This document shows, in pieces, positions 5,927 through 53,583 of a DNA stretch of 64,000 nt. Each line of letters opens with the position of its first letter. The stretch's first letter is position 1. The DNA is from a virus: positions 1 to 64,000 of IMG/VR virus record IMGVR_UViG_3300031972_002446, one strand, 5' to 3'. A program made the position numbers and the translations under genes. Below the pieces are notes generated by a model. The model did no database searches. It saw only the letters and a program-made list of their open reading frames with translations, and was not told the DNA's origin.

Positions 5927-7522
5927 TTAATGCCAATTTTCTCCATATATAGGCAAATCTGCATGATACGCCACGGATCCTCTATCCATAAAAATTTTAC
6001 CACCTTGGCTACGCAACGCTGCACATACCGTATAATGATCCGTAAAAGAAGGATGGTCTTCATATTGTACAATATTATCAAAAATTTTATGATTATTAAC
6101 TTTAGCCATTCTAAAAACTTTTAGAAGCTCATCTTGCAATTTACCGTAACCTTTTTGGAATGTTGATGTTGGCACAACATAAGTACAGCCGACACAATCT
6201 ATTTCTACTAATCTATTATCGTTTTTGACATAAGGGGGATTAAGATCAAAGTTTCTAGAGGCACAGCCTTTTTTCATAATGTCTCTAGCATATTTTGAAT
6301 TAATAGAAGTTCTATCTTTTTGTTGATAGCCACACCAATCATAAAAAACATTTGAATTTTCTATTAACATCACTGGGGCTGTAATGCCTTCAGGATTTAA
6401 GCCAATAGCTCTTGAAACAAAATTATAAGGGTAACTCACTATATCGGAATCTATTACATACAAGTAATCGTAATCATCTAGATTTGTTCTAGAAAGCATA
6501 ATATTTCTTATTCTTTTAACCCTAGACCAAGGTGTATAATCTTTAGATTCCTTGCCGACCCTATCATTTTCAAAGTAATAATGTATATCTAAGTGTGGGT
6601 TATGTTCTTTTAAGCTATAAGCGTGATCCAACATTTTTTGCAACAAATATGGCTCTTGATTTTCTAAGTATGCTATGTGCAATAATACTCTTGGTTTTTG
6701 TGGCAAGGAGCTTAGATGGTCTGTTATTTGTTTGTTTTCTTGTTCTAGGTCTTTTTTACATTTAGACTGCATATATTCTATAACAGATGCTGAGTCTTGA
6801 TTCCTAATAAAAGATGTGAATTTTTCTATTTCTTCAGGAGTTGGTAATTGACCGTTGATTCTGATTGATAGTTGACTAAATATACTATCTTTCAATTCTT
6901 TGAATAAGTCTGAGAATTTACTGCACTTTGTTTTAATTAGTGTTCTTAATTTATTTTGAGAACCACATGTTGCTACAGTCTTTCCTGTAAGCCCTTTAAC
7001 CAACAGGCAAAGAGTTACAAAAGATATATAATATATAAAATTATTATAAGTTTTTAAGCTATCTATAAATTTATCACCATTGAATAAATATTCTTTATGA
7101 GGAAACATTGTTATTCTGTTATTATTCGCAATACTGTTAATGAGTGATAGTTTCAGATTTTGTATATCAATCTCAGATCCTGCACTGTTTTTTAATGAAT
7201 TTAATACTATATCAAATATTTTACTATACGGAGATCTATCTATTAAATCAGTCTTTGCTGATTTAGATATGTAAGTTTTCCTATCTCCTTTCATCGAGTC
7301 AAATTTTTCAGTAACATTATCTTGAATTTGCTTATTCGGATTCTGGGTTTTTAAATATTCTGCTGAATTTTGAAGAGAGCGAACAATCTGATCGACCTGT
7401 CCGTTTTCAATAAGTCGTAAATAGGTTTTAATACCTGATTCATCGACATCTCTGCCCAAAATATTATTATATAATTGGTTTAATTTATTGATATTATGAT
7501 TCATGAAAATAACCTTTTCCAT
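5927..7522 (-). CDS. DUF4214-like N-terminal domain + GT-A (Anp1-like) glycosyltransferase
   Basis: LYNNILGRDVDESG...SAEY; RIRN..L, YVIDSDIV, EIDCVGC; likely start 7504. Confidence 0.65.
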   Translation of the reverse strand: MEKVIFMNHNINKLNQLYNNILGRDVDESGIKTYLRLIENGQVDQIVRSLQNSAEYLKTQNPNKQIQDNVTEKFDSMKGDRKTYISKSAKTDLIDRSPYSKIFDIVLNSLKNSAGSEIDIQNLKLSLINSIANNNRITMFPHKEYLFNGDKFIDSLKTYNNFIYYISFVTLCLLVKGLTGKTVATCGSQNKLRTLIKTKCSKFSDLFKELKDSIFSQLSIRINGQLPTPEEIEKFTSFIRNQDSASVIEYMQSKCKKDLEQENKQITDHLSSLPQKPRVLLHIAYLENQEPYLLQKMLDHAYSLKEHNPHLDIHYYFENDRVGKESKDYTPWSRVKRIRNIMLSRTNLDDYDYLYVIDSDIVSYPYNFVSRAIGLNPEGITAPVMLIENSNVFYDWCGYQQKDRTSINSKYARDIMKKGCASRNFDLNPPYVKNDNRLVEIDCVGCTYVVPTSTFQKGYGKLQDELLKVFRMAKVNNHKIFDNIVQYEDHPSFTDHYTVCAALRSQGGKIFMDRGSVAYHADLPIYGENWH

Positions 7523-8343
7523 TTATTATTAGACTGAGAAACCCTCTTCCAATTAAAGGGGTATAGTTCGATTTGGCTACATTCTGTGCCAGCGGCTTTT
7601 TTATCAAATATCCATTGATCTGGTATATAAACATCTTTATGTTGGTTTTTATCTGATAATAGGGAAGCCCACCATGAGAAAGTGCTATTGGCTATAATAT
7701 TCATACCGCTTAAGTACATAATATAGAAATCGTGGTAAGAGTCAAGATTGTCAACAAAAACTATATTATCTTGTTTGATATTATATTGATGAAATTCTCT
7801 TTTAACTAATTCTATATCGTCGCTAATTATAAATACATTAATATAATCTAAACTCTTCATTATACCAGTATAATAGGATATATCTAAAAATCCATGTTTG
7901 GATTGCAGGGATGTATAGTCTGTTCTTCTGAAATGTAAACATAATGTTTTTTCTAAATTATATTTTTTGCTATACTTTTTAATATACTCATTAGACTCTT
8001 TAAGTATTTTATTATTGGGTTGCAACTCTAATCTGATTTCATTTAAAAATATTTTATAGTAATTAAGATTTTGAAAAAAACCACATAAATCTATATTGCT
8101 ATATTTTAAAATGTCTTTATCGAATTCAAATGGATCTTTTTCTATATATTTATGGATACTATTTTCATATAGTTTTTTATAAGATAAATTTTTAGTATTA
8201 AAAAATTTTAAAAAATGTTTAGATGGATTCAGGTGAAAGTCACAGTTGTGTAAGACCGATAAGGCTTTGCATAAACTATATTGAAATAATTGATTTCCAA
8301 ATCTACCATAATCTATATGATTAAAAATTGAGCAAGATATCAT
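7501..8343 (-). CDS. Alpha-1,2-fucosyltransferase (GT11)
   Basis: GRFGNQLFQY, GFFQ, HFRRTDY, IIANSTFSWW. Confidence 0.92.
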   Translation of the reverse strand: MISCSIFNHIDYGRFGNQLFQYSLCKALSVLHNCDFHLNPSKHFLKFFNTKNLSYKKLYENSIHKYIEKDPFEFDKDILKYSNIDLCGFFQNLNYYKIFLNEIRLELQPNNKILKESNEYIKKYSKKYNLEKTLCLHFRRTDYTSLQSKHGFLDISYYTGIMKSLDYINVFIISDDIELVKREFHQYNIKQDNIVFVDNLDSYHDFYIMYLSGMNIIANSTFSWWASLLSDKNQHKDVYIPDQWIFDKKAAGTECSQIELYPFNWKRVSQSNNKWKRLFS

Positions 8344-9203
8344 TTTATCAAGATATTGGATCCTTCTTTTACTGCTTTATGAAGTAATTTGTAGTCTTTA
8401 TCCATACAATACAAGAATTTTTGAGCCCCAGGAACAGGGTCTCCTTTAAGGTCTTCTGGGTTTACTTTTGTTATATTTATAGTTTTTATACTCTCCGTAA
8501 CATCAGCCAGAATCCCATAGTAAGCGCTAATGATTTTAGCTTTGCTTTTCTTAGTTGGTAAAGTTGTTTTTTTTCTAAGTTCAGAAATTTTTGTTCTTAC
8601 CGCAGATAAAAGCATTATTTTATGTTGAAGCCCTACAGTGTAGTTCGCATGAAACATTTTAATAGGTCTTAATATATGAAAATCTTCACCATTCCATTGT
8701 CTATGCTCAAATGATATATTAAAGAAATCACGAGATAAAAATTTACCTTTTACTTCTTTAATATTATCATTAATAGCATTTTGATCACAGCTATATTTAG
8801 AGTAATTGTTTTTAATTAATTCAAAAAATCTTTTAGTATTATTGTTTATTTTACATATAAAGAATCCAGCACAATATTCTTCATTAACACCTTCTTGAAA
8901 TGCTATATCATAATCCCCTAATTCATCTACGCATTGCTGAACAAAAGAAGAATAAAACTCTATATCGACGTCTGACCAAATGAAATATTGATCATTAGTA
9001 TTTACTGCTTGTAAATATATATCTATTTTTTGTTCCATAGATTCCTTCCAGCCATCTGCATAATAACTCCCATTTGTACAGACGGCGTTATCTTGTTCTA
9101 CAGCAACCAATTCTATCTCTGGTTCAACTCTATTTAAGCTATTGGTAAAAAACTCATCATATAAAAATCTATGTGAGTTAGATACCATAGTGTAAATTTT
9201 CAT
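8340..9203 (-). CDS. Nucleotide-diphospho-sugar transferase (GT77-like)
   Basis: WSDVDI, CAGFF, DQNAIN, FHANY motifs. Confidence 0.75.
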   Translation of the reverse strand: MKIYTMVSNSHRFLYDEFFTNSLNRVEPEIELVAVEQDNAVCTNGSYYADGWKESMEQKIDIYLQAVNTNDQYFIWSDVDIEFYSSFVQQCVDELGDYDIAFQEGVNEEYCAGFFICKINNNTKRFFELIKNNYSKYSCDQNAINDNIKEVKGKFLSRDFFNISFEHRQWNGEDFHILRPIKMFHANYTVGLQHKIMLLSAVRTKISELRKKTTLPTKKSKAKIISAYYGILADVTESIKTINITKVNPEDLKGDPVPGAQKFLYCMDKDYKLLHKAVKEGSNILIK

Positions 9204-9642: not shown

Positions 9643-10557
9643 TCATAAATTTGGATGTATTATACCAAATCCTTGATATTTCTTATCTCTAAATCTAGAA
9701 TCTTTAAGAGGTGTTGAATCTTTCTTTAATATATCTATCATTTCCTGTCTAGTCAACTTGCTTTTACTATATTTCTGTCTATAATAGGATATGTATAAAG
9801 CAGCGACGCCTGAAGCAAACGGGTTACTCATACTGGTTCCACTCATCAAGGCGTACCTATTGTAAGGTAGTATACTCATTATGTCATGTCCTGGAGCCAA
9901 AAAGTCTAAACTTGGACCACTACAAGTGAAGTTAGTTCTATTTAAATTTCTATCTATAGCGCCGATACTTATTGTATTATTATACTTAGCTGGGTATAGT
10001 ATATCAACTTTAGGGCCTGAATTTCCAGCTGCGCAGAAAACTAGACATCCTTCATTATTTGCTAATTCTACTGCTTTTTTGACAGCCCCTGACGACCCTC
10101 TGGAACCTAATGACATTGTAATTATATCTACTTTTTCCTTAGCTGCAAATCTTATGGCCTTTGCTACATTAGACAAACTACCTCCACCGTTTTTATCTAA
10201 AGCTTTTAATGCTAATATTTTAGCTTTAGGCGCTACCCCAACCATACCTATTCCATTATTTACAGCAGCAATAGTGCCGCAAACATGCGAACCATGACCA
10301 TTATCGTCGAAAGCATCTTGTGTATTATTGATAAAATTATATTGACCTATAATATTACCTTTTATATCTGGATGATTAATATCGCATCCTGTATCTATTA
10401 CAGCAACAGTTACTCCATCTCCAGTACTTTTAATCCACTGCTTATCTACATTTAACTTTGTTATTTCCCATCCCACCATTTGAGGATCTCTAGGACTTAA
10501 TCCGAAAAATTCTTCGGTTTTATAAGGAAACAGGAAAGCATTATCTCTATGACTCAT
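9643..10557 (-). CDS. Subtilisin-like S8 serine peptidase
   Basis: VAVIDTG, GHGSHVCG, AAGN, SGTSMS catalytic triad; start chosen at MSHRD after GAGG RBS. Confidence 0.95.
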   Translation of the reverse strand: MSHRDNAFLFPYKTEEFFGLSPRDPQMVGWEITKLNVDKQWIKSTGDGVTVAVIDTGCDINHPDIKGNIIGQYNFINNTQDAFDDNGHGSHVCGTIAAVNNGIGMVGVAPKAKILALKALDKNGGGSLSNVAKAIRFAAKEKVDIITMSLGSRGSSGAVKKAVELANNEGCLVFCAAGNSGPKVDILYPAKYNNTISIGAIDRNLNRTNFTCSGPSLDFLAPGHDIMSILPYNRYALMSGTSMSNPFASGVAALYISYYRQKYSKSKLTRQEMIDILKKDSTPLKDSRFRDKKYQGFGIIHPNL

Positions 10558-10564
10558 AATATCC

Positions 10565-10882
10565 TCATACATTCTTGAAAGGTTTATTTTTGATTTTATA
10601 TAAATATTTTTTAGAATCTTCTATTACATTAGTATTCCAGCTTTTATAGTTCATCAAGTGACCAAATATAAAATGGCAGTACTTATCACAAAGAGTAATT
10701 AAATTATCAGGATCCAACTCTTTTGATGGATCTAGATGTACTGGTATAATATGATGCACTTCTGGTCTTTTGCATGATCCACAAGCCTGACAACAAGGTT
10801 GCTTTTCTATATGCTCTTTGCGCAAGGCTGCCCAACCGGGAGACCGAACAGCATAACGAATTTTTTTATTAAAAGGCCACAT
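10565..10882 (-). CDS. HNH endonuclease
   Basis: CQACG...VHHIIP...NLITLC...CH. Confidence 0.85.
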   Translation of the reverse strand: MWPFNKKIRYAVRSPGWAALRKEHIEKQPCCQACGSCKRPEVHHIIPVHLDPSKELDPDNLITLCDKYCHFIFGHLMNYKSWNTNVIEDSKKYLYKIKNKPFKNV

Positions 10883-11886
10883 TAGTCTAAAATGGAAGCC
10901 GCTATAAGGCATCCTTTAGATACTGAGTGCAGAGGGTCTTCTGCATGCTTTACTTCTTCAATAGGTAAAGGAAACTCAGCTTCGAGTAATTTTTCATTCA
11001 GTTTTTCTATATAACCATCTGCTCTCGATGTTCCGCCAGCAACAACAATTCTAATCGGATCTTTAAATTTAGGAAGGGCTTTATGTCCAGATAAAGCAGC
11101 TGAAAGTTGTTTAGCTGTATACTCTATTAATCTTTCATAATAAGAAGCTACTGCTCCAAGTACTGCGTTTTCGTTAGGTTCACCAACCTTAAAACCACCT
11201 CCCTCTTTTTCTACTTGAACAACACTATCTGGCTCTCCGGTTGCTACAGCACTCATACGATCAACCCAATCTCCAGATTTTGTTGTACTGAATACTACAG
11301 TAGGTTCTCCATTAAGCATAACACATACATTTGTCATGCCAGCTCCGCAACTTATACCGATACCAGTATAATCACTAGACTCTAACTCTGCATAACATAA
11401 TGCTTCAGCTTCATTGATTGCTCTAGCATCATAACCAGTTTCTGCAAGTATAGCCGTGACTACATCTTCATGATATCCAACATCAAAGTCATCATCTTCT
11501 TGATCAACTGGTTGAGCAGGAACGCAGAATACTAATTTTTCGCCGGGTTCAGATGCTTGCCCGACTACTTCTTTTAATATATAAGCAAGAACTCTTTTCG
11601 CTTCTTTTTCTTTGACTGATACCACTCCACGATACATAGGTCTTCTAGCAGCTTCGTTTCTTTCCACTGCTTTTTCTATTGCGTCTTTACCTAGAATAAT
11701 AAATGAACCATCGGTATCTTTAACAAATACTTTACCAGCCAAACCTTTTTCAATCATTTTTGTAGCGATTGGTGTTGTTGGTTTAATTACATAAAAAGCA
11801 TCTCTAAAATCTTTAAATCTTATATTATCTCCTTCATAAGAAGATAAAACTATAAAACTTGTACCTACGTCTAAACCTTTACTCAT
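10882..11886 (-). CDS. Actin-fold ATPase (MreB/MamK/FtsA superfamily)
   Basis: GLDVGTS (phosphate 1), INEAEA (connect 1), SCGAGMTN (phosphate 2), VVAGGTS (adenosine), DPLHSVSKG (connect 2). Confidence 0.88.
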   Translation of the reverse strand: MSKGLDVGTSFIVLSSYEGDNIRFKDFRDAFYVIKPTTPIATKMIEKGLAGKVFVKDTDGSFIILGKDAIEKAVERNEAARRPMYRGVVSVKEKEAKRVLAYILKEVVGQASEPGEKLVFCVPAQPVDQEDDDFDVGYHEDVVTAILAETGYDARAINEAEALCYAELESSDYTGIGISCGAGMTNVCVMLNGEPTVVFSTTKSGDWVDRMSAVATGEPDSVVQVEKEGGGFKVGEPNENAVLGAVASYYERLIEYTAKQLSAALSGHKALPKFKDPIRIVVAGGTSRADGYIEKLNEKLLEAEFPLPIEEVKHAEDPLHSVSKGCLIAASILD

Positions 11887-11887
11887 A

Positions 11888-12190
11888 TCATTTACCCTTC
11901 ATGTTTTTCAGTTTATTAATGGCTGACTGAGTATTATCTTTCTTGCTTGTTGTGTTACCCAGTTTTTTACTGCTTTTACTCATACTATCTGTAGATACAC
12001 CTAAAACTATCTTTTTGTCGTTTATATCTATTTTTACAGACTTTTCTTGCTGTTTACTATTTTTATCAAAAAAACTTTTAGGTTTTTGAGAATGCTCTAT
12101 ATTATTCTTATTTAAGATATATTTTTCAAAGAATATACCAAATGTAAACATAAGAAATAATAGTATAAATACCATCATTTGTTCTATCAT
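11888..12190 (-). CDS. Small protein with N-terminal transmembrane helix and basic C-terminus
   Basis: MMVFILLFLMFTFGIFF; ends 1 nt before the actin start. Confidence 0.7.
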   Translation of the reverse strand: MIEQMMVFILLFLMFTFGIFFEKYILNKNNIEHSQKPKSFFDKNSKQQEKSVKIDINDKKIVLGVSTDSMSKSSKKLGNTTSKKDNTQSAINKLKNMKGK

Positions 12191-12231
12191 ATTATATCTC
12201 CTGTATATTTTTACAGTATATAATACACTAT

Positions 12232-13185
12232 TTAGATTTCTATAGATATAGTCATTTTATTTATGAACTTTTTTTTATAAAGTTTATCTATATCTATATT
12301 ATTAGATATTTCTTTCAATTTATCTTTTAGTATGTTTGTATGTTTTTTCTGTATACATATAGTATGTTCTCTTATTCTTTTCCTTTCATTTAAATTTGGA
12401 TAATTATCAAGCCATTGTTGCACACATGAAGAGACACTCTCGATAGAGTCTTCCGCTATAATACAATTAGTGTCTGTAAAAAATACATCACGACCTCCTG
12501 TGGATTTAGTAGATACTATAGGTAATCCACATAATAGATACTCCACACTACTATACATGGCTCCTTCTTGGCTAGACAAACATAATCCTACTTTTGATTT
12601 ATTAAGTAAATCATTAACCTCGAAAGCTGTTAAATGCTGAGAACATAAAGTAAAAGAATTATTTTGATTATCTATTAGTGCAGAATGACCTTCTTTACTA
12701 TATTTATCATTATATTTATTGCCTGAAGTTAAATATAAAATATTATTTAAACCATAAGAAAGATAATGTCTTTTTAATTTACATACTCTAGCTGTATAAA
12801 CAGAGTTCCAAATATTATTACACTCTTGAATATTAAAAATTTCCCTATCAATAGTAGCGTTATGATTGCATAATATAGCAGAGAAACTACTTATACTTTC
12901 ATTAGATACGATTTCAAGAGAGTTAGTGTCATTGCAACACATAACTATTCTTAACCCAGTACATTCTTTTAAAATTTTTTCCACCGAACGCTTTAAAGAT
13001 GACCACCTGTTAGAATTCATTGTATAATATTGCCATATGAATAAAGTATATGGTTCTTTTTTACTTTTGATATACTTAGTAATTCTATCTAATCCTTTTT
13101 TATTTTGAGGTCTAATATTATTGTTTCTCATAAATGTAGAAGGTACAAATAATGTATTGATTTCTGGTAATTCAAAAACTTTCAT
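12232..13185 (-). CDS. GT-B glycosyltransferase (GT4-like)
   Basis: SSQEGAMYSSVEYLLCGLPIVST (EX7E motif). Confidence 0.8.
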   Translation of the reverse strand: MKVFELPEINTLFVPSTFMRNNNIRPQNKKGLDRITKYIKSKKEPYTLFIWQYYTMNSNRWSSLKRSVEKILKECTGLRIVMCCNDTNSLEIVSNESISSFSAILCNHNATIDREIFNIQECNNIWNSVYTARVCKLKRHYLSYGLNNILYLTSGNKYNDKYSKEGHSALIDNQNNSFTLCSQHLTAFEVNDLLNKSKVGLCLSSQEGAMYSSVEYLLCGLPIVSTKSTGGRDVFFTDTNCIIAEDSIESVSSCVQQWLDNYPNLNERKRIREHTICIQKKHTNILKDKLKEISNNIDIDKLYKKKFINKMTISIEI

Positions 13186-13190
13186 TAAAT

Positions 13191-14015
13191 CTAACCCTTT
13201 AGTCGTAGTTCTTTGATCTTTTCAGAAAATCTTAAAATTTGCATCCGATAATAACCTGTACCAATATATTCGTGCCACACTTTTTTATATTCCGCATCTT
13301 TGTTTTTAATAGCATGCTCTTGTTTAATTGACTGAATCTTTCCACCGAAAAACTCGTAGTGTTTTCCTCCTTTATTTGTAACGCTTTTGTAAGACTTTAA
13401 TCCGTTTATCATTTTAGTTTTAAAATGTTTATAGCCCATAATATGAAAATGCATATAGCATAAATTTGTTGAAACCCAATTTTTATTTACTGTTATCTCA
13501 CCGTTATGGTTGCCTTGATCTGTTTTAACAAAATATTTTGCTGGAAATAATGTTTTACTATTTTCATACATAGGTTCATGTAAAAAGTTAGTTATCTCAA
13601 TCAATGGGTCTTTATATTTAATTTCATCTGCGTATGCTCTTAATTCATGAACTTTATATCTACATTTTTTTGGCAGTGATATTAATTCATTTATAATTTT
13701 ATTCTTATTCGGAAAACACTCACCTTCATTTGAAAGATAACATAAGAACTCATCACAGTCTATTGGTATTAATATATCTACTTCATTCTTGTAGTTTTTT
13801 AATACTCTAGATATTTCTTTTTTTTTATTCTGAAATTCACCATTAAAAGAGTTATAAGATACTTTAAATTTACTAAGTATGTCAAAGGTTTTTTGATCGG
13901 GTTTATGATTTATGACATGAATTGACTCGATTCCAAATATATGACTATGATATAGCAACCAATCATTCAATAATATATGCTCATTTTTTTGAAATAATAC
14001 TAATTTTACTTTCAT
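13191..14015 (-). CDS. GT-A glycosyltransferase (GT2_4/GT92-like)
   Basis: KNE..LL.DWL.YH..IFG, IDCDEF, QGNH. Confidence 0.8.
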   Translation of the reverse strand: MKVKLVLFQKNEHILLNDWLLYHSHIFGIESIHVINHKPDQKTFDILSKFKVSYNSFNGEFQNKKKEISRVLKNYKNEVDILIPIDCDEFLCYLSNEGECFPNKNKIINELISLPKKCRYKVHELRAYADEIKYKDPLIEITNFLHEPMYENSKTLFPAKYFVKTDQGNHNGEITVNKNWVSTNLCYMHFHIMGYKHFKTKMINGLKSYKSVTNKGGKHYEFFGGKIQSIKQEHAIKNKDAEYKKVWHEYIGTGYYRMQILRFSEKIKELRLKG

Positions 14016-14311
14016 TTGAAGTACTCGTGTGCATTAATATTTTTGTCATCTATAAATAGATCATACACTGGTTTACCAAAAAGTATTTGGGTGTATTTCA
14101 CTAACCACTTATCAAATTGTCTTTCTGTAATATCTCTCCAATCAATACCGCTTTTAGTTCCTCTAGCAGTCCAATAAATAATCGTATGTCCTTGATTATA
14201 AAGATCATTCATTTTGGCAATCCTCTCGTAAATTGGAGAGGCTTCAGAATAGTCTTGACTATCTGTAGGTAGTTTACAAATTGTATTATCTATATCTATA
14301 TATATAATCAT
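14012..14311 (-). CDS. Small HAD-like phosphatase
   Basis: DIDNTIC, WTARG, GKP.YDLFIDDK. Confidence 0.8.
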   Translation of the reverse strand: MIIYIDIDNTICKLPTDSQDYSEASPIYERIAKMNDLYNQGHTIIYWTARGTKSGIDWRDITERQFDKWLVKYTQILFGKPVYDLFIDDKNINAHEYFK

Positions 14312-15396
14312 CTCATTGTCTTTTTTAAAAAATGTATAGTCTTATTATCTTGTAAAAAAGTGCCGTTATATTCCGTGTTGTTTATTTTACTAAAAACAGT
14401 AGTCTTCTCTTTATCTTTATTAAAAAATACTATTTTGCCATCATCTTCTAGACTCCAATATTTTTCATTGTCGCACCAATAACCTTTTATGCTACCATCA
14501 TTATCCAAAGTTATTGCTGCATATACTAAGTTGGCTTGTCCATCTTTTCTACCAAATAGCCATTCTGCTGGTTTAAGACTATCTATATCTTTAAAGTTAG
14601 TATTAAATACTACAGATCTATTTTCTTGCATTTTATCAATAAAATCTTGGTATCCTTCCCAATCTTTTAAAACATAATGAATATGAGTCAGTTTACCTGT
14701 TGGTGTTACAGCAGAGTAATCCTCAACATGCGCCCATGCACTCATAAATAAAGATTCTACGACAGGTACTTTACATATTTTGGCAACTACAGCGGGAGTA
14801 TTATCTCCGTATCCCGGTAAATATTTATCGGTTAATTCTAAATATCTAGGCAGTATCGGATGATTCTTAATTTTCACTGCTCCACCGCAGGAAAAAACAG
14901 AACCCTCCCAACTATGAATAAAGTATGGAGTATCTTTATAATTATTGATATCCATATTTCCAAAAAATATATTTTTAATCTCCATTTCTCTAAGTATAAG
15001 TTGTTGATGATAGTCCATATCTGGGGTTCTAGAACATAAGAACATAATAGGATCAACATAATCATAAAAATCATTTAAAAGTTCATAACTTCTGTCTATG
15101 TCTGTACTAGAGTCATCATCTACTTGCATTATCCACTCATAGTCCACTTTACTTTGTTCTATATACTTTATAAACCTAGTAGATAATTTTTCTTTTACAT
15201 CAACCCATTCAAAAAGCGGATTGTTTGATATGAAATCAGGAGCCTCTTCATTTTCAGCTAAAAATACAATTTTAATATTTATAGTATCTTTATTAGTAAA
15301 TTTAAAACCATACTTATAAATAAAATCTTTTAATCTTTCAACATATTTTTGTTTTTTAGCAGAGGCTAGTACCGCTAGTTTAAACTGATATTTCAT
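14308..15396 (-). CDS. Putative glycosyltransferase with C-terminal beta domain
   Basis: WIMQVDDDS DxD motif (GT31/fringe-like); C-terminal NEKYWSL domain. Confidence 0.5.
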   Translation of the reverse strand: MKYQFKLAVLASAKKQKYVERLKDFIYKYGFKFTNKDTINIKIVFLAENEEAPDFISNNPLFEWVDVKEKLSTRFIKYIEQSKVDYEWIMQVDDDSSTDIDRSYELLNDFYDYVDPIMFLCSRTPDMDYHQQLILREMEIKNIFFGNMDINNYKDTPYFIHSWEGSVFSCGGAVKIKNHPILPRYLELTDKYLPGYGDNTPAVVAKICKVPVVESLFMSAWAHVEDYSAVTPTGKLTHIHYVLKDWEGYQDFIDKMQENRSVVFNTNFKDIDSLKPAEWLFGRKDGQANLVYAAITLDNDGSIKGYWCDNEKYWSLEDDGKIVFFNKDKEKTTVFSKINNTEYNGTFLQDNKTIHFLKKTMR

Positions 15397-15961
15397 TAAT
15401 TTTTATATGACTATATTTTTCATCATAGGTTAAAAAAGAAGCAATAGTATATCTAACACCAGAAGTTATTTTTGTTACTCCATGTAAATATTTTAAAGTT
15501 CCCGGAAAGTATATAGAATATCCAGGCTTAGGTTCAATTTTTAAATTATGATCGGGGAAAAATAAAGTACCACCTTCAAAGTCGTCATTCAAAAAAGTAA
15601 CTAACGCAAAATCTCTCCAAGGGAAATTATGTTTTGGACTACCGGGAGGATTTTCTGCATCGGCATGTGGTTGTAATTCGTAACCCACAGGCCATCGAGC
15701 AATAGATAAATGCTCACAATATATTGGTTTTTCAATATTCATAGACTCTTTCATATGAGCAACGCCTTTAGACAATACATCTATGATTATATTTCTTACT
15801 CTACCATCTTCTATAGAGTCATGAAACAATGTCCTACCTTGCCAATAGTTGTTTTGGCTGACTTCTCCCCACTTATCGGTATGAGTATCTAAATAATTTC
15901 GCACGGTCTGTAGTTCATCTTGACTATCAATATTTTTAAATGTATTGGGGAATTTATCCAT
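15380..15961 (-). CDS. 2OG-Fe(II) oxygenase, prolyl 4-hydroxylase-like
   Basis: HAD (HxD), FLNDDFEGGTL, HGV..ITSGVRY. Confidence 0.9.
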   Translation of the reverse strand: MDKFPNTFKNIDSQDELQTVRNYLDTHTDKWGEVSQNNYWQGRTLFHDSIEDGRVRNIIIDVLSKGVAHMKESMNIEKPIYCEHLSIARWPVGYELQPHADAENPPGSPKHNFPWRDFALVTFLNDDFEGGTLFFPDHNLKIEPKPGYSIYFPGTLKYLHGVTKITSGVRYTIASFLTYDEKYSHIKINEISV

Positions 15962-15971
15962 GTGCTTCCTT

Positions 15972-16742
15972 TTAATCTAATGAAATTTGGTGATCTTGAA
16001 ATTTATTTCCATATACATCTTCGCCGTTAAAATACCTTCTACCATTTCTATGTCTTTTTTGTTGATCTGCACCTGCTCTTTCCAGACCATGTTGTTTAGC
16101 GCATTCTCTCTCTTTTGTTATATCGTCTTCAGATAAAATGTCAATCACATTGGTGAGAGTAAAGTTATCTATGAAATGTCTTGGGTAAGGAATAAAACAA
16201 CCTAAAATATCTCCTTTTTTAATCTTTATATTATAATTTGGTCTTGTTATCCTTAGATTAAAAGTAAAATCACGCCTTAAATTATCAGATTCAATAACTC
16301 CTGTCATATGATAAATACCGTCTATATAATGATTAGGCGGATTTATTGTCATTAAATTAATACCATCTGGAGTACGTAGAGAAAATGTTGTTTGTATTGT
16401 TATTGTACCCATACCGAAATGACTTTTTATAGACTGCAAAGCATTCAACTCGGCATGTTCTGTATCATTATGATGAGTAACCTTAACATCATTCGGACTG
16501 TTTCCCCCATTCCAGTTAACTGTAATATCGTAAAGACTTTTCATAATGAAACCATGCTGATTACCCATAACTAAAGGTAAACAAAAGTAAGCATGTTGAA
16601 CAAACCAATCTCTTTTTATTTGTCCTTTTAGGCTACTAAAAAGCATATTAACATACTCTTGCTTTTGCCATTTATCATCGTGTGCTATTAGACATATATT
16701 ATCTTTTGGTATTAAATCACTCATGTAAATAACAACCCCCAA
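15972..16742 (-). CDS. DUF6065-like protein
   Basis: RDWF...AYFCLPL.MGNQHG, SHFG.G, GVIESD. Confidence 0.7.
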   Translation of the reverse strand: MGVVIYMSDLIPKDNICLIAHDDKWQKQEYVNMLFSSLKGQIKRDWFVQHAYFCLPLVMGNQHGFIMKSLYDITVNWNGGNSPNDVKVTHHNDTEHAELNALQSIKSHFGMGTITIQTTFSLRTPDGINLMTINPPNHYIDGIYHMTGVIESDNLRRDFTFNLRITRPNYNIKIKKGDILGCFIPYPRHFIDNFTLTNVIDILSEDDITKERECAKQHGLERAGADQQKRHRNGRRYFNGEDVYGNKFQDHQISLD

Positions 16743-17761
16743 CTATCAGACACTTTATTAGTAATTTTTACATCTTCTTTTGTCTTATCAATTTCTTCAT
16801 CTTCTTTTGTCTTATCAATTTCTTCAAATTCTTTTTTAAAGAAATAAGAATATTCAATTCTCATTTGATTTGTTTGCATCTCGTAGGGAACCCAAAAAAT
16901 AGATTTACCAGAAGAATAATGTATAACATATATTTTTTCTTGTATGTCAGAGATATACGATCCAGTATCTTTAAGATTAATTGTATATCGAGGCCACTCC
17001 TCTGTATTAATATCCTTTCCATTAATTCTATATATCACTGGGTCTGCTGGATGGGTTATCTCTTCATAATTCAGTTCCTCATATTTTAATCCCATGTCCA
17101 TTAAAGTAAACTGACCACAATACTGTTCATTAAAATACTCATAACCCTCAAGCATTGTTTCGTCAATTTTTTTTGCTTCTAAAAGTTTACGACCTTTCTT
17201 CGAGAGATACATACGCTTTTTGACTATATTATTATACAGACTTTTTTTATTTCTAATAGATTTTGAGTCAATTATAAATTGCCCACTGTTCATATTTTTA
17301 ATATCAGGATATAATATATCATTAACAGGATCAATACATGATAAAGTCCATAACTTACCGTTTTCATATTTATTAAAAAAATCAGATGGATTTCTTACAA
17401 ACATAGAGTCGCAATCTAGGAAGAAAATTTTATCATAACCCATCTGCAACGCTTTTTGTAAATGATACCATTTAGACATATATGAGTCATGCTTGTAAGG
17501 TCTTTTGCGAACGACCTTATACTTATTAGTGTAGTCTGTTTTCACACACTTAACAAAATCAAAATCTGTAGATATATTATATTTATCATTTAATTTAAAA
17601 TGATTTATATCAATATTATCATAAAGATAATAAAAAACTAAAACATCGAAAGAATTATCATAAACTTCTGATAAAGTCTTTAAAGAATAGTATGCCATAG
17701 AATAATATTTCATATCCCATTCATTATCTATAAACATTGAATAATATAAGCAGTTTTTCAT
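16721..17761 (-). CDS. GT8-like glycosyltransferase
   Basis: KIFFLDCD, MNSGQF, NEQ, VIHY. Confidence 0.65.
   Translation of the reverse strand: MKNCLYYSMFIDNEWDMKYYSMAYYSLKTLSEVYDNSFDVLVFYYLYDNIDINHFKLNDKYNISTDFDFVKCVKTDYTNKYKVVRKRPYKHDSYMSKWYHLQKALQMGYDKIFFLDCDSMFVRNPSDFFNKYENGKLWTLSCIDPVNDILYPDIKNMNSGQFIIDSKSIRNKKSLYNNIVKKRMYLSKKGRKLLEAKKIDETMLEGYEYFNEQYCGQFTLMDMGLKYEELNYEEITHPADPVIYRINGKDINTEEWPRYTINLKDTGSYISDIQEKIYVIHYSSGKSIFWVPYEMQTNQMRIEYSYFFKKEFEEIDKTKEDEEIDKTKEDVKITNKVSDSWGLLFT
16771..16826. repeat. Perfect 27-nt tandem duplication (EEIDKTKED x2)
   Basis: catcttcttttgtcttatcaatttctt repeated twice. Confidence 0.95.
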
Positions 17762-24916: not shown

Positions 24917-25091
24917 TTACATTCCTATATTCTTCATCAGTCCACATTTTGTAGACCAAATAAAAATCTCTAGGTTTCCATTGTTTTACTTTTTCTTCAC
25001 TAGATACTTCTCCCCTTGGAACGGAGAGAAGCATCACCAGATATAAAAAGCACAACCCAATAATAATCCACAAACTTTTATCTTTAATCAA
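24906..25091 (-). CDS. Small membrane protein
   Basis: N-terminal hydrophobic helix. Confidence 0.5.
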   Translation of the reverse strand: MIKDKSLWIIIGLCFLYLVMLLSVPRGEVSSEEKVKQWKPRDFYLVYKMWTDEEYRNVNGK

Positions 25092-26091
25092 TACTTCCTA
25101 CTTCTCTTCCATTACGAGTAATTGCAGCAGCAAATGCTCTTAAATCTACGTTATCATTAATAGTTCTAGTAGAACCATCTGCATATACGCAATTCATTAC
25201 GCCGGGGTGCATACTATATGCTTCACCATCATTAATAACATTGAATGGTACATTACCAGAACAATTTTTACATTTATCACCATTAGCATCAACACCATGT
25301 AATTTAAATGGCCCTAATGAATCTGCCCAACCAATACACTGGTTAGTACCACCAATAGCAGTTTTACCATTACTAGCCTTATATATATCAGGTCTACTTG
25401 CACACTCTACAATCATAAGAGTATTAGAAAAACCATCAACAATTTCTTGCTCTTTAGTTACTTTATCTTTAATCAAGCAACCATCATCATTAGTTTTACT
25501 TGCGTAAGGATCGCTACCAGCAGGAAAAATCTTATCTTTTACTCCAGTAAACACCTCATAGTCTGTATAACCAAGTATATTCGGGTCTAAACTCGGTGCA
25601 GCACTATCGCTATCTCTACTAGGCCCATCAACACTGGCGTACCCACCATTAGGAGGAAGTGCGGTTGGACATTTAAATACAGATGCTTCTGTAGCAATAG
25701 CAGCAGTATTTTGCCACCAATGTTTATTGAAGTCATAAATGTTTGCTACGTTACCCTGTTCTAAATTTGCAAGAACAAATGCTCTCCAACTATGTTCTGT
25801 TCGTGAAGGATTACCTAGCGAACTAGGAGTCTCGGACAAATTCTTTGCTTCGATAGTCCATGCAGCAGCAGGGAAATATCTCTTCTGGTCTAAACTCATG
25901 TGCATAGCAAGACCTTGTTGTTTTAGATTATTTGAGCATGATGCTCGTCTTGCAGACTCTCTGGCAGACTGAACAGCGGGTAATAGCAATCCTACTAAAA
26001 CGCCGATGATTGCAATAACTACCAGTAATTCGATGAGAGTAAAACCTTTATTGTTTTTAGTTTTTTTACTTCGTTTGAAAAAGTTAAACAT
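25084..26091 (-). CDS. DUF1559 (SBP_bac_10) prepilin-type N-methylation protein with H-X9-DG motif
   Basis: KG|FTLIELLVVIAIIGVLVGLLLPAVQSARESARR..CSNNLKQ.GLA.H; DGFSNT; SMHPGVMNCVYADGS. Confidence 0.95.
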   Translation of the reverse strand: MFNFFKRSKKTKNNKGFTLIELLVVIAIIGVLVGLLLPAVQSARESARRASCSNNLKQQGLAMHMSLDQKRYFPAAAWTIEAKNLSETPSSLGNPSRTEHSWRAFVLANLEQGNVANIYDFNKHWWQNTAAIATEASVFKCPTALPPNGGYASVDGPSRDSDSAAPSLDPNILGYTDYEVFTGVKDKIFPAGSDPYASKTNDDGCLIKDKVTKEQEIVDGFSNTLMIVECASRPDIYKASNGKTAIGGTNQCIGWADSLGPFKLHGVDANGDKCKNCSGNVPFNVINDGEAYSMHPGVMNCVYADGSTRTINDNVDLRAFAAAITRNGREVGSID

Positions 26092-26947: not shown

Positions 26948-26960
26948 AACTAGCCCTTAG

Positions 26961-27033
26961 TAGGGTTGGCGGGAGTCGAACCCGCACTGTACGGATTTTA
27001 AGTCCGTTGTCTCTGCCTTTGGACTACAACCCC
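26961..27033 (-). tRNA. tRNA-Leu (anticodon UAA), short variable loop, CCA not encoded
   Basis: GGGGTTG acceptor/CAACCCT-A; ACGGA-CTTAAAA-TCCGT; GCGGG-TTCGACT-CCCGC. Confidence 0.93.
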
Positions 27034-38531: not shown

Positions 38532-38534
38532 AAG

Positions 38535-38873
38535 TGGAGGCGAGGGGAGTCGAACCCCTGTCCAGTATAAATTCCATATAAACTTCTACATCGTTAGTCT
38601 GTTGTTATTAATACTACAGACAAAACTGTTTGTCTTTCCAACGGCAAAGTGATTACACTTATCTTTATATTTAATTCAGGTATAATTCCCTATCCGATTA
38701 TCGGAGTCAACATAATTGGGTAAAAAGGTTTATGTAACCCCTCCCACCTAAGCGGCGAGTGCTAATACAGAAGTATCGGCAATTAAAATGTGATCTATTT
38801 TTAAACTGGCCTTTAGATCAACCAGTCGATGCAATCTATACTTCTATTTATCTGTCGATACCAGTACGCCCCC
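38535..38873 (-). ncRNA. ssrA: tmRNA; tag reading frame 38780-38748 encodes ADTSVLALAA*
   Basis: 5' GGGGGCG pairs with 3' CGCCTCC-A with G3:U70; GGTATCGAC; T-arm AGGGG TTCGACT CCCCT; PK1-like CTGGT/GCCAG + GATCTA/TAGATC; tag ends LALAA. Confidence 0.95.
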
Positions 38874-51275: not shown

Positions 51276-51662
51276 TTATACACCATTTTTTTTACCTTTT
51301 AAATCTGCTATATTTTGTGCAATATCTACTAGCCTATCCCAATTTGCATCAATATATTCTTTTGGCCCACCCATATCAGCCTGTGCCTGTGCTATTTCTT
51401 CGGTAGGAACCATCTCGATAGCATCCCAAGGACAGACTTTAAGATCATATTTCTTACCTTTACCGCCGGGAACATGAATACATTGTTCGCAACCTATACA
51501 AGTAGACAAATCAATCTCACACCATTGAGTTACTCCCTGTTTTATCTGGAATATACAATCAACAGGACATACTTCTAAACAAGCCTCACAACCAGTACAA
51601 TTATCTGCTTGAATTATTGCTAATTCTTTAGGAATCTTTTTTCTTGGTTTTTTGTTTGCCAT
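51276..51662 (-). CDS. 2x[4Fe-4S] ferredoxin-like protein
   Basis: CTGCEACLEVCP and CIGCEQC...CPWDAI. Confidence 0.9.
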   Translation of the reverse strand: MANKKPRKKIPKELAIIQADNCTGCEACLEVCPVDCIFQIKQGVTQWCEIDLSTCIGCEQCIHVPGGKGKKYDLKVCPWDAIEMVPTEEIAQAQADMGGPKEYIDANWDRLVDIAQNIADLKGKKNGV

Positions 51663-52957
51663 TATGCTATAATATCGTGTTGAATGTTACCAAATACATC
51701 AGTTAGTCTAAAGTCTCTACCACTATATCTATATGTTAATTTACTATGGTCAATACCCATTAGATGTAATATAGTAGCATGTAAATCATGCATGTCCATA
51801 CCATCCACTGCTTTATGCCCAAAATCATCAGTAGAACCATATCTCATACCACCTTTAACACCACCACCTGCCATCCACATAGAAAATCCACTATTATTAT
51901 GATCTCTACCTGTTGCTCCTTCTTTTATACCGGGAGTTCTGCCAAACTCACTTCCAAATAATATAATTGTATCTTCAAATAATCCAGAATCTTTTAAGTC
52001 TTGGATCAAAGCAGCGATAGGTTTATCAATAGCAGAAGTATTCTTTTTTAAATTATCATTAATGTTCTGGTGCATATCCCATCCACCATGACCAATCTCT
52101 ACGAATCTAACTCCTGCTTCACTAAATTTCTTTGCTAATAAACACTGTTTGCCAAATTTAGCAGTGGCTTTATCATTGATACCATACTTCTGTAAGGTTT
52201 GTTGCGATTCTTTTGATATATCAATAGTATTAGGAACACTTGTCTGCATCCTAAAAGCCAACTCATAACTCTCAATCAATCCTTCTAGTCTACCATTTTC
52301 TGCACCATCTTTTAGGTGCATCTGGTTAAAGTCTCTTAATAAATCTAAATCTTTTCTTTGTCTGTCTTTAGTTGTAGATGTATTTACAAGATTAGGTATA
52401 GCACTTTTACTACCAGCATTAATAGCAGTGCCTTGATATACTGCTGGTAAGAATGAACTACCATAATTATCAGGCCCAATGTTAGCATCTATAGTTATAA
52501 ACCCCGGCAACTCTTTATTCTCTGTGCCTAATCCATACAATAACCAACTACCCATACTAGGTCTACTGAATTGAAAATTCCCGGTATGTAATAAACTTCT
52601 TGCTTGATTATGATTACCTGTTTTACTCTTCATACCATTCAACAGACATAAATCATCTGCATGTTTACGCAAGTGTGGGAAGTTCTCGCTAATTTCTATG
52701 CCGCTATCTCCTGCTGGAGTTAAAGGCACTCCCGGTTTCATAATCTTTCTACCTTTACTTACAGGATCATCTATACCTGCTTTTTCTACCATTAAAGGCT
52801 TATGATCAAAAGTATCAGTATGAGTCATACCACCATTCATATACATGAATATAACTCTCTTATTACTTTTCATAGCCTCTTCTGCCATTAATCCTTTTAA
52901 TGCTAACATACCGAAACCAAAACTACTGGCTTGTAATAAACTTCTTCTATTTAACAT
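51662..52957 (-). CDS. DUF1501 family protein (alkaline phosphatase/sulfatase-like), Tat-exported
   Basis: NRRSLL, GG..H.DTFD, RPSMGSW..YGLG, GWDMH, EFGRTP, GRDH, DLHATILH..G. Confidence 0.93.
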   Translation of the reverse strand: MLNRRSLLQASSFGFGMLALKGLMAEEAMKSNKRVIFMYMNGGMTHTDTFDHKPLMVEKAGIDDPVSKGRKIMKPGVPLTPAGDSGIEISENFPHLRKHADDLCLLNGMKSKTGNHNQARSLLHTGNFQFSRPSMGSWLLYGLGTENKELPGFITIDANIGPDNYGSSFLPAVYQGTAINAGSKSAIPNLVNTSTTKDRQRKDLDLLRDFNQMHLKDGAENGRLEGLIESYELAFRMQTSVPNTIDISKESQQTLQKYGINDKATAKFGKQCLLAKKFSEAGVRFVEIGHGGWDMHQNINDNLKKNTSAIDKPIAALIQDLKDSGLFEDTIILFGSEFGRTPGIKEGATGRDHNNSGFSMWMAGGGVKGGMRYGSTDDFGHKAVDGMDMHDLHATILHLMGIDHSKLTYRYSGRDFRLTDVFGNIQHDIIA

Positions 52958-52959
52958 AT

Positions 52960-53583
52960 TTACTCTCCGAATTTATAGTTTAATAATTCTATATCTTGTT
53001 CATATTTGTCTTTAACTATTTGTTGAGTTTCCTCATTATAATATTCTTGATATGGTCTGTGTTTGGATTTGTGCATTGTTTTAAATTTCTTACGTTTGGG
53101 CATACCTATTGCATCACACACAAAACCAAGATCATTTGCAAAATTTTCAAAACGACCTACAAAATCTATTTGATCAATAGGATACAATTCTGTTTGTAAC
53201 CTATAATGTCTATCGCATGTCTTAGTCTTTACATTTCTTATATAATGTATAAACTTATCAAATGTTTTAAAGTTATTCTTATTGAAGTTCTCATAACCAT
53301 CCTCCATTTTATTAAAATAACAACTAACTAATCTATCCCAAGGGTTTCTAACAAAAGCAAATTTAAAATAATTATCAGAATACATTCGGTTTTTCCATAG
53401 CAGATATTCCTGCCAAACATTTTCATCGTTCTGATATATATTAATTCTATTACAAAAACTTATTTTAGTATGTTGGCATAAGTGGGAAAGAATCGTTGTT
53501 GTTGCTGCTTTCGCAACCCTGAACCACAAATATTTATTTTTTTGTGATGAAGTTATCATAAATTTTGTTTTAATATACTTCAT
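52960..53583 (-). CDS. Sulfotransferase family 2
   Basis: KAATTT, FKFAFVRNPWDRLVS, DFVGRFE, YQEYY. Confidence 0.88.
   Translation of the reverse strand: MKYIKTKFMITSSQKNKYLWFRVAKAATTTILSHLCQHTKISFCNRINIYQNDENVWQEYLLWKNRMYSDNYFKFAFVRNPWDRLVSCYFNKMEDGYENFNKNNFKTFDKFIHYIRNVKTKTCDRHYRLQTELYPIDQIDFVGRFENFANDLGFVCDAIGMPKRKKFKTMHKSKHRPYQEYYNEETQQIVKDKYEQDIELLNYKFGE

Follow-up and report, generated by a model that had tools for sequence, protein, structure and literature searches.

For phages that build a cytoskeleton of their own, the main known examples are the PhuZ tubulin of nucleus-forming jumbo phages and a single prophage actin, AlpC. In the Volactin family, filaments in vivo have been shown only for VolA (HVO_2015) of Haloferax volcanii; they are dynamic and ParM-like, and microscopy shows them touching the membrane with their tips (PMC10869688). 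The volA gene adjoins that of a membrane protein, the CdpA-like HVO_2016 with its four transmembrane (TM) helices (PMC12126565). In the ParM system, the C-terminal 17 residues of the adaptor ParR occupy the gap between ParM subdomains IA and IIA, and do so at just one end of the filament (PMC3794156), and in Anabaena CorR recruits actin-like CorM filaments to the membrane (bioRxiv 10.1101/2025.06.27.661541). Here, we describe two adjacent phage genes, one for an actin of the Volactin family and the other for a small predicted membrane protein, and we hold with moderate confidence that this pair builds dynamic actin filaments of the phage, whose ends are tethered to the host inner membrane. In the literature that we searched for phage volactin, for PF25216 and for actin homologues encoded by phages, jumbo phages included, volactin-type actins of phages are not described.

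The genes lie in the first 64 kb (hereafter the window, meaning the whole stretch of DNA that was analysed) of a 165,940-bp IMG/VR virus record that CheckV rates as complete. The window has a G+C content of ~30% and carries nearly all of its genes on the minus strand. The phage of this record is a tailed one, since an ORF of 678 aa beyond the window has a match to the large terminase (phrog_2, E 2.2e-23). What is its host? Genes typical of Planctomycetota are present in the window, namely those for a PSCyt1-PSCyt2-PSD1 protein, for DUF1501 and for DUF1559 with a prepilin-type N-methylation motif (N_methyl), and they support the planctomycete host that an earlier note on this DNA had assumed. 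This aquatic phage thus probably infects planctomycetes, bacteria which, to our knowledge and by textbook account, lack FtsZ. The two minus-strand ORFs of 100 and 334 aa that the same note had read are both there, and the sequence of their junction reads as a TGA stop, one base and an ATG (Table 1).

Table 1. Features of the gene pair, with positions counted from the first letter of the window
Feature	Position	Strand	Evidence
Volactin-family actin-like ATPase, 334 aa	10882..11886	(-)	PF25216, AlphaFold2 model, Foldseek, motifs, tree
Predicted adaptor of 100 aa that passes the membrane once, encoded 1 nt ahead of the actin gene	11888..12190	(-)	Adjacency in 79/79 loci
Predicted transmembrane helix of the adaptor, ~residues 4-22, predicted N-out/C-in	12125..12181	(-)	Hydrophobicity, charge counts
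Conserved C-terminal tail of the adaptor, residues 76-100, ending in ..SAINKLKNMKGK, predicted actin-binding helix	11891..11965	(-)	Conservation, predicted interface
41-nt spacer with AGTGTAT (12223-12229) and AGGAG ribosome-binding site, candidate promoter of the pair	12191..12231	(-)	Sequence, related loci

To which family does the 334-aa protein belong? It matches PF25216 (Volactin) with 227.5 bits against a cut-off of 35 (E 3.8e-67), residues 1-330 aligning with profile positions 1-321 of 321, and the match was repeated in a six-frame search of the genome. An identity as MreB was rejected, since the score on MreB_Mbl (PF06723) falls below the curated cut-off (22.2 bits versus 27, in one partial stretch; 14.7 bits in the genome search); true MreBs of planctomycetes score 427-472 bits on this model. 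A Pfam scan at E up to 0.1 listed Volactin, MreB_Mbl, ROK (E 0.086, which is noise) and the UBA-like domain UBA_N4BP1, and no ParM-type family. The five actin-superfamily motifs that had been recognized from the sequence are all in place, as phosphate-1 (GLDVGT, residues 4-9), connect-1 (NEAEA, 158-162), phosphate-2 (GISCGAGMTN, 177-186), the adenosine motif (VAGGTS, 282-287) and connect-2 (DPLHSVSKG, 317-325), and they occupy invariant or near-invariant columns of a 68-sequence family alignment. Invariant throughout these 68 sequences are D6, G8, E159, G181, G183, G284, G285 and G325, and the nucleotide site is intact. An AlphaFold2 model computed from the family alignment (pLDDT 94.6, pTM 0.91) has as its best PDB neighbours in Foldseek the MamK filament 5ljv, the BeeR filament 8r2n and many MreB entries, at TM scores of ~0.65-0.73, and sugar kinases and Hsp70 do not lead this list. 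A phmmer search of the PDB sequences at E up to 1 returned nothing for the protein, BFVD held no close viral structural relative (best TM ~0.5-0.6, mostly Hsp70 homologues), and PHROGs contained no family for either member of the pair.

The same placement emerges from a maximum-likelihood tree in which DnaK, the MreB of planctomycetes and another actin-like family from these bacteria served as outgroups (55 sequences in all). The Volactin clade (45 rows; SH-aLRT 100) stands apart from these outgroups and contains a phage clade, made up of the window's protein and nine relatives (SH-aLRT 99). Metagenomic sequences with 44-51% identity are its sisters (SH-aLRT 97-99), and phage clade and sisters together are separate from the planctomycete cellular clade. 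VolA of H. volcanii is itself absent from the tree, so that membership of the Volactin family is given by the Pfam model. Together, the PF25216 match, the Foldseek neighbours and the tree agree with the actin-fold ATPase proposed in the earlier note and, as far as sequence comparison can tell, the protein is a genuine Volactin-family actin. It is also a widespread one. A large protein collection holds more than 2,000 matches to it, the top 120 clusters all being at least 80% identical, and clustering of the family at 50% leaves 942 representatives at E up to 1e-3. IMG/VR contains 363 contigs with a relative of the actin, of which 80 were retrieved (77-91% identical, including contigs of 140-230 kb); mean pairwise identity among related phage loci is ~81%. 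In a phage collection that may lack close relatives, the only tblastn matches were to two uncultured huge phages (32-35% identity), and look-ups of the clusters gave no name beyond 'hypothetical protein'.

The neighbouring gene accompanies the actin with great regularity. In each of the 79 retrieved phage loci with a complete actin gene, this gene is preceded at a distance of 1-8 nt (43 nt in one case) by the end of an ORF of 95-132 aa, and the outer neighbours of the pair, that is, the gene further upstream and the gene downstream, vary between these loci. All 80 partner proteins, the window's included, have exactly one strongly hydrophobic 19-mer near the N-terminus, which begins around residue 7 (Kyte-Doolittle at least 1.77, median 2.58). 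Lysines and arginines around this stretch average 0.2 in the N-flank and 1.68 in the C-flank; because the positive charges follow the hydrophobic stretch, the positive-inside rule predicts a cytoplasmic C-terminal part. In the window's own partner we find one hydrophobic N-terminal segment (~residues 4-22) and the basic amphipathic end SAINKLKNMKGK, and thus both features that had been reported for it, the TM helix being a prediction. Mean pairwise identity is 39% for the partner as compared to 81% for the actin, and loci that differ more in one of the proteins tend to differ more in the other (r = 0.71). Hydrophobic stretch and linker are free to change from locus to locus, and the last ~50 residues are conserved (I.IDD.K.V..I.TDGLEKKYD.LG..K....NIS.SVNKLKNMKG), with K93 and L94 invariant in the tail and K95 and K98 nearly so. 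The partner family comprises 717 clusters, all of proteins of ~100 aa, and has neither a Pfam domain match nor a name.

Is the membrane anchor common to all volactin partners? At a more distant locus (L084, 51% actin identity), the arrangement is the same, with a TM helix and a tail ending in ..INKLKELKKR. At L086 (47%) and in the huge phage LR745208.1 (35% actin identity), the upstream protein has a similar basic tail without a TM helix. Since these distant partners lack the helix, the predicted membrane anchor is a feature of the phage clade and not of the whole volactin family. Loss of the TM partner next to homologues, which the earlier note had named as grounds for giving up its reading, is therefore not what we observe in the phage clade, where the partner is kept in 79 of 79 loci and down to 51% actin identity; what parts of the wider family lack is the membrane anchor.

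Cellular volactins add a second comparison. Species-representative genomes were scanned with a narrow planctomycete-type alignment (A3), and the 143 loci that this returned are nearly all in MAGs of Planctomycetota, as expected of a query that biases matches towards the planctomycete type. In an even sample of the phylum, 62 of 151 genomes carry a Volactin gene above the Pfam cut-off, and a true MreB is present as well in planctomycete genomes with a volactin. In at least 18 planctomycete loci, the ORF that ends directly at the actin gene or shortly ahead of it encodes a coiled-coil protein of 159-549 aa with the N-terminal motif L.DL.KKGFK.VKVL, a glycine run and a C-terminal tail of the form ..LESN...V.VK..KA.GV...LAKLK.L..GG. 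A simple hydrophobicity scan of these partners found no TM helix, which is why we gave up the view that partners throughout the family are anchored to the membrane. Aligned by hhalign, phage and cellular tails are in register over 31 columns, in a match that is weak and short (E 0.0019, probability 14%), and the upstream protein at the locus with P0165 ends in ..STVERLKQIK, the same pattern. To judge from these sequences, the tail looks like a volactin-binding module common to phage and cellular systems, and the phage version looks as if it joined this tail to a bare membrane anchor in place of the coiled coil.

Given such relatives in the probable hosts, the phage proteins might act on the cytoskeleton of the host. 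Host volactin filaments would then be capped or moved elsewhere by the adaptor tail, or else poisoned or supplanted by the phage actin, and host shape or division would be arrested or altered to the benefit of the phage. The frequency of volactin genes in the phylum, the similar KLK tail at the end of planctomycete upstream partners and the planctomycete-signature genes in the window all speak for this view. However, the phage actin shares only ~35-38% of its residues with planctomycete volactins and branches in a deep clade of its own, making co-polymerisation unlikely, and the strong linkage of both phage genes fits a self-sufficient pair. We therefore consider such a takeover unlikely, even if it is the alternative that survives best.

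Does the small protein bind the actin at all, or is it merely syntenic? The earlier note had proposed AlphaFold models of the filament and of the partner. In our fold test, the actin (alignment A2) was combined with residues 48-100 of the partner (alignment A1) and compared with three controls. The pair scored 0.73 and the best control 0.00; 58 of 80 solved complexes attain this mark, as do 2 of 110 mismatched pairs, counts that are rough, as self-made alignments were used, and the score may owe part of its height to solved look-alike complexes (ParM-ParR, actin-WH2). The runs share at least 86% of their contacts, with a partner pLDDT of at least 57. In the predicted interface, partner residues 76-98 face actin residues 17-27 (first hairpin), 165-173 (end of the connect-1 helix and following loop), 192-193 and 317-332 (C-terminal helix), which places the tail in the cleft between subdomains IA and IIA, in a position like that of ParR. 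WH2-type helices bind actin in this cleft, too. Its core is invariant in the phage clade (I103, V107, Y165, A166, Y173, G193 and I328). The model supports binding of the partner tail to the actin, and makes the basic amphipathic tail more likely an actin-binding than a membrane-binding element.

If the partner were a neighbour only, it would have some other job, for instance in lysis, exclusion or as a transport accessory, leaving the actin to act by itself or with some other factor. Mere synteny would be compatible with the dense packing of phage genes, in which neighbours often have no functional connection, with the lack of any known domain in the partner and with support for binding that is purely computational. 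Against it stand the adjacency of the two genes in all 79 loci despite varying flanks, the correlated divergence of their products, a tail that is the most conserved part of the partner and recurs beside cellular volactins, and a fold test in which the pair scored well above its controls. On balance, an unrelated neighbour seems improbable to us.

The predicted arrangement of the adaptor tail in the cleft resembles ParR on ParM, and a prophage actin with a DNA-binding adaptor is known in AlpC/AlpA (PMC4446434). Might the pair, then, move DNA in the manner of ParMRC or AlpAC, with an adaptor that binds phage DNA at a centromere-like site and a filament that pushes or positions genomes, for example in a plasmid-like prophage state? 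The basic, non-TM upstream partners of the distant relatives L086 and L082 would suit such a role. The partner studied here, however, has a TM helix and, by Pfam, no DNA-binding domain; region 10400-13300 contains no iteron array or centromere-like repeats, and the spacer ahead of the pair is short (only 41 nt). Moreover, Pfam listed no ParM-family match for the actin, and no second protein with such a tail was found in the phage genome. This makes a DNA mover quite improbable for the window's pair, while the same explanation may apply to the distant relatives whose partners lack the TM helix. A non-polymerising ASKHA enzyme or chaperone, kinase-like or Hsp70-like, is very improbable, for although the fold is common to kinases and Hsp70 and the viral neighbours in BFVD are mostly Hsp70 homologues, the Volactin match is full-length and that to ROK only noise, the PDB neighbours are filament-forming actins, and DnaK is a distant outgroup in the tree, in place of the grouping with such enzymes by which the earlier note would have withdrawn its actin reading.

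How might the pair be expressed? The AGTGTAT that had been noticed ahead of the two genes is present, 33 nt upstream of the partner's ATG; as a word alone, it is not enriched in the window (5 matches versus 12.4 expected), and GGTGTA (25 versus 18.7) was likewise counted as not enriched there. Upstream of the partner gene, [AG]GTGTA occurs within 60 nt in 18 of the 21 distinct related loci that have a spacer of at least 30 nt, and in only 4 of the 34 where the partner gene abuts its neighbour. Because the motif recurs where there is a spacer and is rare where there is none, a promoter element is plausible. In some of the related loci, the motif comes right after a terminator-like hairpin. As for the wider surroundings, ruvB directly precedes the pair in L084 and many other loci, and in the window a glycosyltransferase island (12232-17761) lies between the pair and ruvB. 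This position near ruvB suggests, by gene order only, that the pair is expressed with replication and recombination genes.

We return to the reading that we favour, in which actin and adaptor together form membrane-tethered filaments. From their place next to ruvB, the two genes would be expressed alongside those for replication and recombination; they would be co-transcribed and probably translationally coupled. The Volactin actin would bind ATP and polymerise into dynamic filaments, as suggested by its family membership and its intact, conserved nucleotide site. Hydrophobicity and the positive-inside rule predict that the adaptor sits in the host cytoplasmic membrane by its one N-terminal helix, with the rest of the protein in the cytoplasm. 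There, its last ~20 residues would form an amphipathic helix, whose hydrophobic face (A90, I91, L94, M97) is predicted to insert into the IA/IIA cleft. Since the corresponding cleft of ParM is free at only one filament end, the filaments would likely be held to the membrane by their tips, an end-binding that we extrapolate from ParM. Tip tethering of this kind fits the microscopy of Haloferax volactin and the membrane protein encoded beside volA. The filaments might serve to place sites of replication or assembly, or to reshape the membrane or the cell.

A broader picture is possible, and we put it forward tentatively. Hundreds of aquatic phages, probably of Planctomycetota, may encode a self-contained, tip-anchored actin cytoskeleton, whose adaptor tail would be an ancient end-binding motif common to phage and cellular volactins. 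The phage would have swapped the coiled-coil cargo domain for a bare anchor, and its filaments would organise replication or assembly in FtsZ-less hosts with elaborate inner membranes. If true, this would make the pair the actin counterpart of the PhuZ tubulin spindle. The phage actin belongs to a different family from AlpC, one described so far only in a haloarchaeon, and is kept at ~80% identity across hundreds of uncultured phage contigs together with a minimal membrane adaptor. It thereby offers a small two-protein system in which to study the end-anchoring of volactin filaments, a way into the uncharacterised planctomycete operons that pair volactin with a coiled-coil protein, and a hypothesis, open to test, on how infection by large phages is organised where the host has an unusual cell plan. 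Conserved tail and cleft are direct targets for mutagenesis.

How does the phage pair compare with the systems described before? With Volactin of H. volcanii it shares the Pfam family (PF25216, over the full length) and the place of the actin gene beside that of a membrane protein. The two differ in that one is archaeal and the other viral, with the phage actins forming a separate deep clade, and in that HVO_2016 has four TM helices, whereas the phage partner is a predicted single-pass protein of 100 aa with a KLK tail; the role of VolA in disk-shape formation in H. volcanii is not transferable to the phage. The uncharacterised volactin operons of Planctomycetota have the same actin family and an upstream gene ending in a similar ..L.KLK.L..GG tail. 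Their partners, however, are 159-549-aa coiled coils with a conserved N-terminal motif and without a TM helix, compared with the 100 aa and TM helix of the phage partner, and their actins, unlike that of the phage, often carry N-terminal extensions or occur in tandem. ParM-ParR, the type II partition system of plasmid R1, likewise combines an actin-like filament with an adaptor whose C-terminal peptide lies at the IA/IIA cleft, as predicted for the phage. It belongs to another actin family, though, and has the reverse gene order; the phage adaptor is membrane-anchored by prediction and has no DNA-binding domain, and the phage locus has no centromere repeat. CorM-CorR is the nearest functional precedent for adaptor-driven recruitment of an actin-like filament to the membrane, but it is ParMR-derived and cellular and binds the membrane by an amphipathic helix in place of a TM helix. 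AlpC-AlpA of the Corynebacterium prophage CGP3 (PMC4446434) and jumbo-phage PhuZ are phage-encoded cytoskeletal filaments that serve phage replication or positioning; AlpC, from another actin-like family, works with an adaptor that binds DNA, PhuZ is a tubulin, and neither has a TM adaptor. Set beside these systems, the phage pair is a variation on the known theme of an actin plus its adaptor rather than a new kind of system.

The highly conserved actin gene is a target of selfish elements. An HNH endonuclease gene overlaps its stop (Table); should translation begin at the second Met of the HNH frame, the two genes would likely share a TAATG overlap. This endonuclease gene is found in only some relatives. 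In another phage, the actin P0122 (53% identical) is encoded by a gene split by an intein of roughly 360 aa, inserted after FSTTK.

What else surrounds the pair formed by the actin and its membrane-anchored partner? A subtilase is encoded downstream of the actin gene and its HNH neighbour, and in the related locus L084, too, the pair is followed by an S8 protease, together with two trypsin-like proteases. In the window, ruvB and the pair are separated by a gene island of glycosyltransferase type (GT1, GT2, GT11, nucleotide-diphospho-sugar transferases and DUF6065); in L084, ruvB immediately precedes the partner gene.

Features of the window, with coordinates and strand
Feature	Position	Strand	Match or remark
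Subtilase S8 protease	9643-10572	-	phrog_3677, E 2.6e-78
HNH endonuclease gene	10565-10912	-	overlaps stop of actin gene
Glycosyltransferase-type gene island	12232-17761, also 7501-9203	-	
Planctomycete-signature gene set	51276-55952 and 25084-26091	-	
tRNA-Leu(TAA)	26960-27033	-	
tmRNA gene, full-length	38532-38873	-	Rfam RF00023, 113 bits

The planctomycete-signature set comprises a 790-aa protein with the domain order PSCyt1-PSCyt2(DUF1549)-PSD1(DUF1553), a DUF1501 match (447 bits), a sulfotransferase, a ferredoxin and a DUF1559 protein that bears a prepilin N-methylation motif. Besides a tRNA, the phage encodes a tmRNA, which is unusual on a phage; its tag peptide reads ADTSVLALAA, and this gene could help in host assignment.

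Planctomycetes also possess a second actin-like family (L170-L173; about 350 aa, GIDLGTSRT...). Its members score 65-73 bits against the MreB model, and the tree places them apart from MreB and Volactin alike.

As for the cellular volactins of planctomycetes (loci L088-L165 and L176), their operons also encode a coiled-coil protein, which combines a Gly run and a KLK tail with an N-terminal motif that is conserved. The volactins themselves often occur as tandem paralogues, or with long N-terminal extensions; P0126 is a tandem fusion. In P0125 and P0129 the actin seems fused to an N-terminal motif similar to that of the coiled-coil protein. The volactin/coiled-coil operons look like an uncharacterised cellular cytoskeleton.
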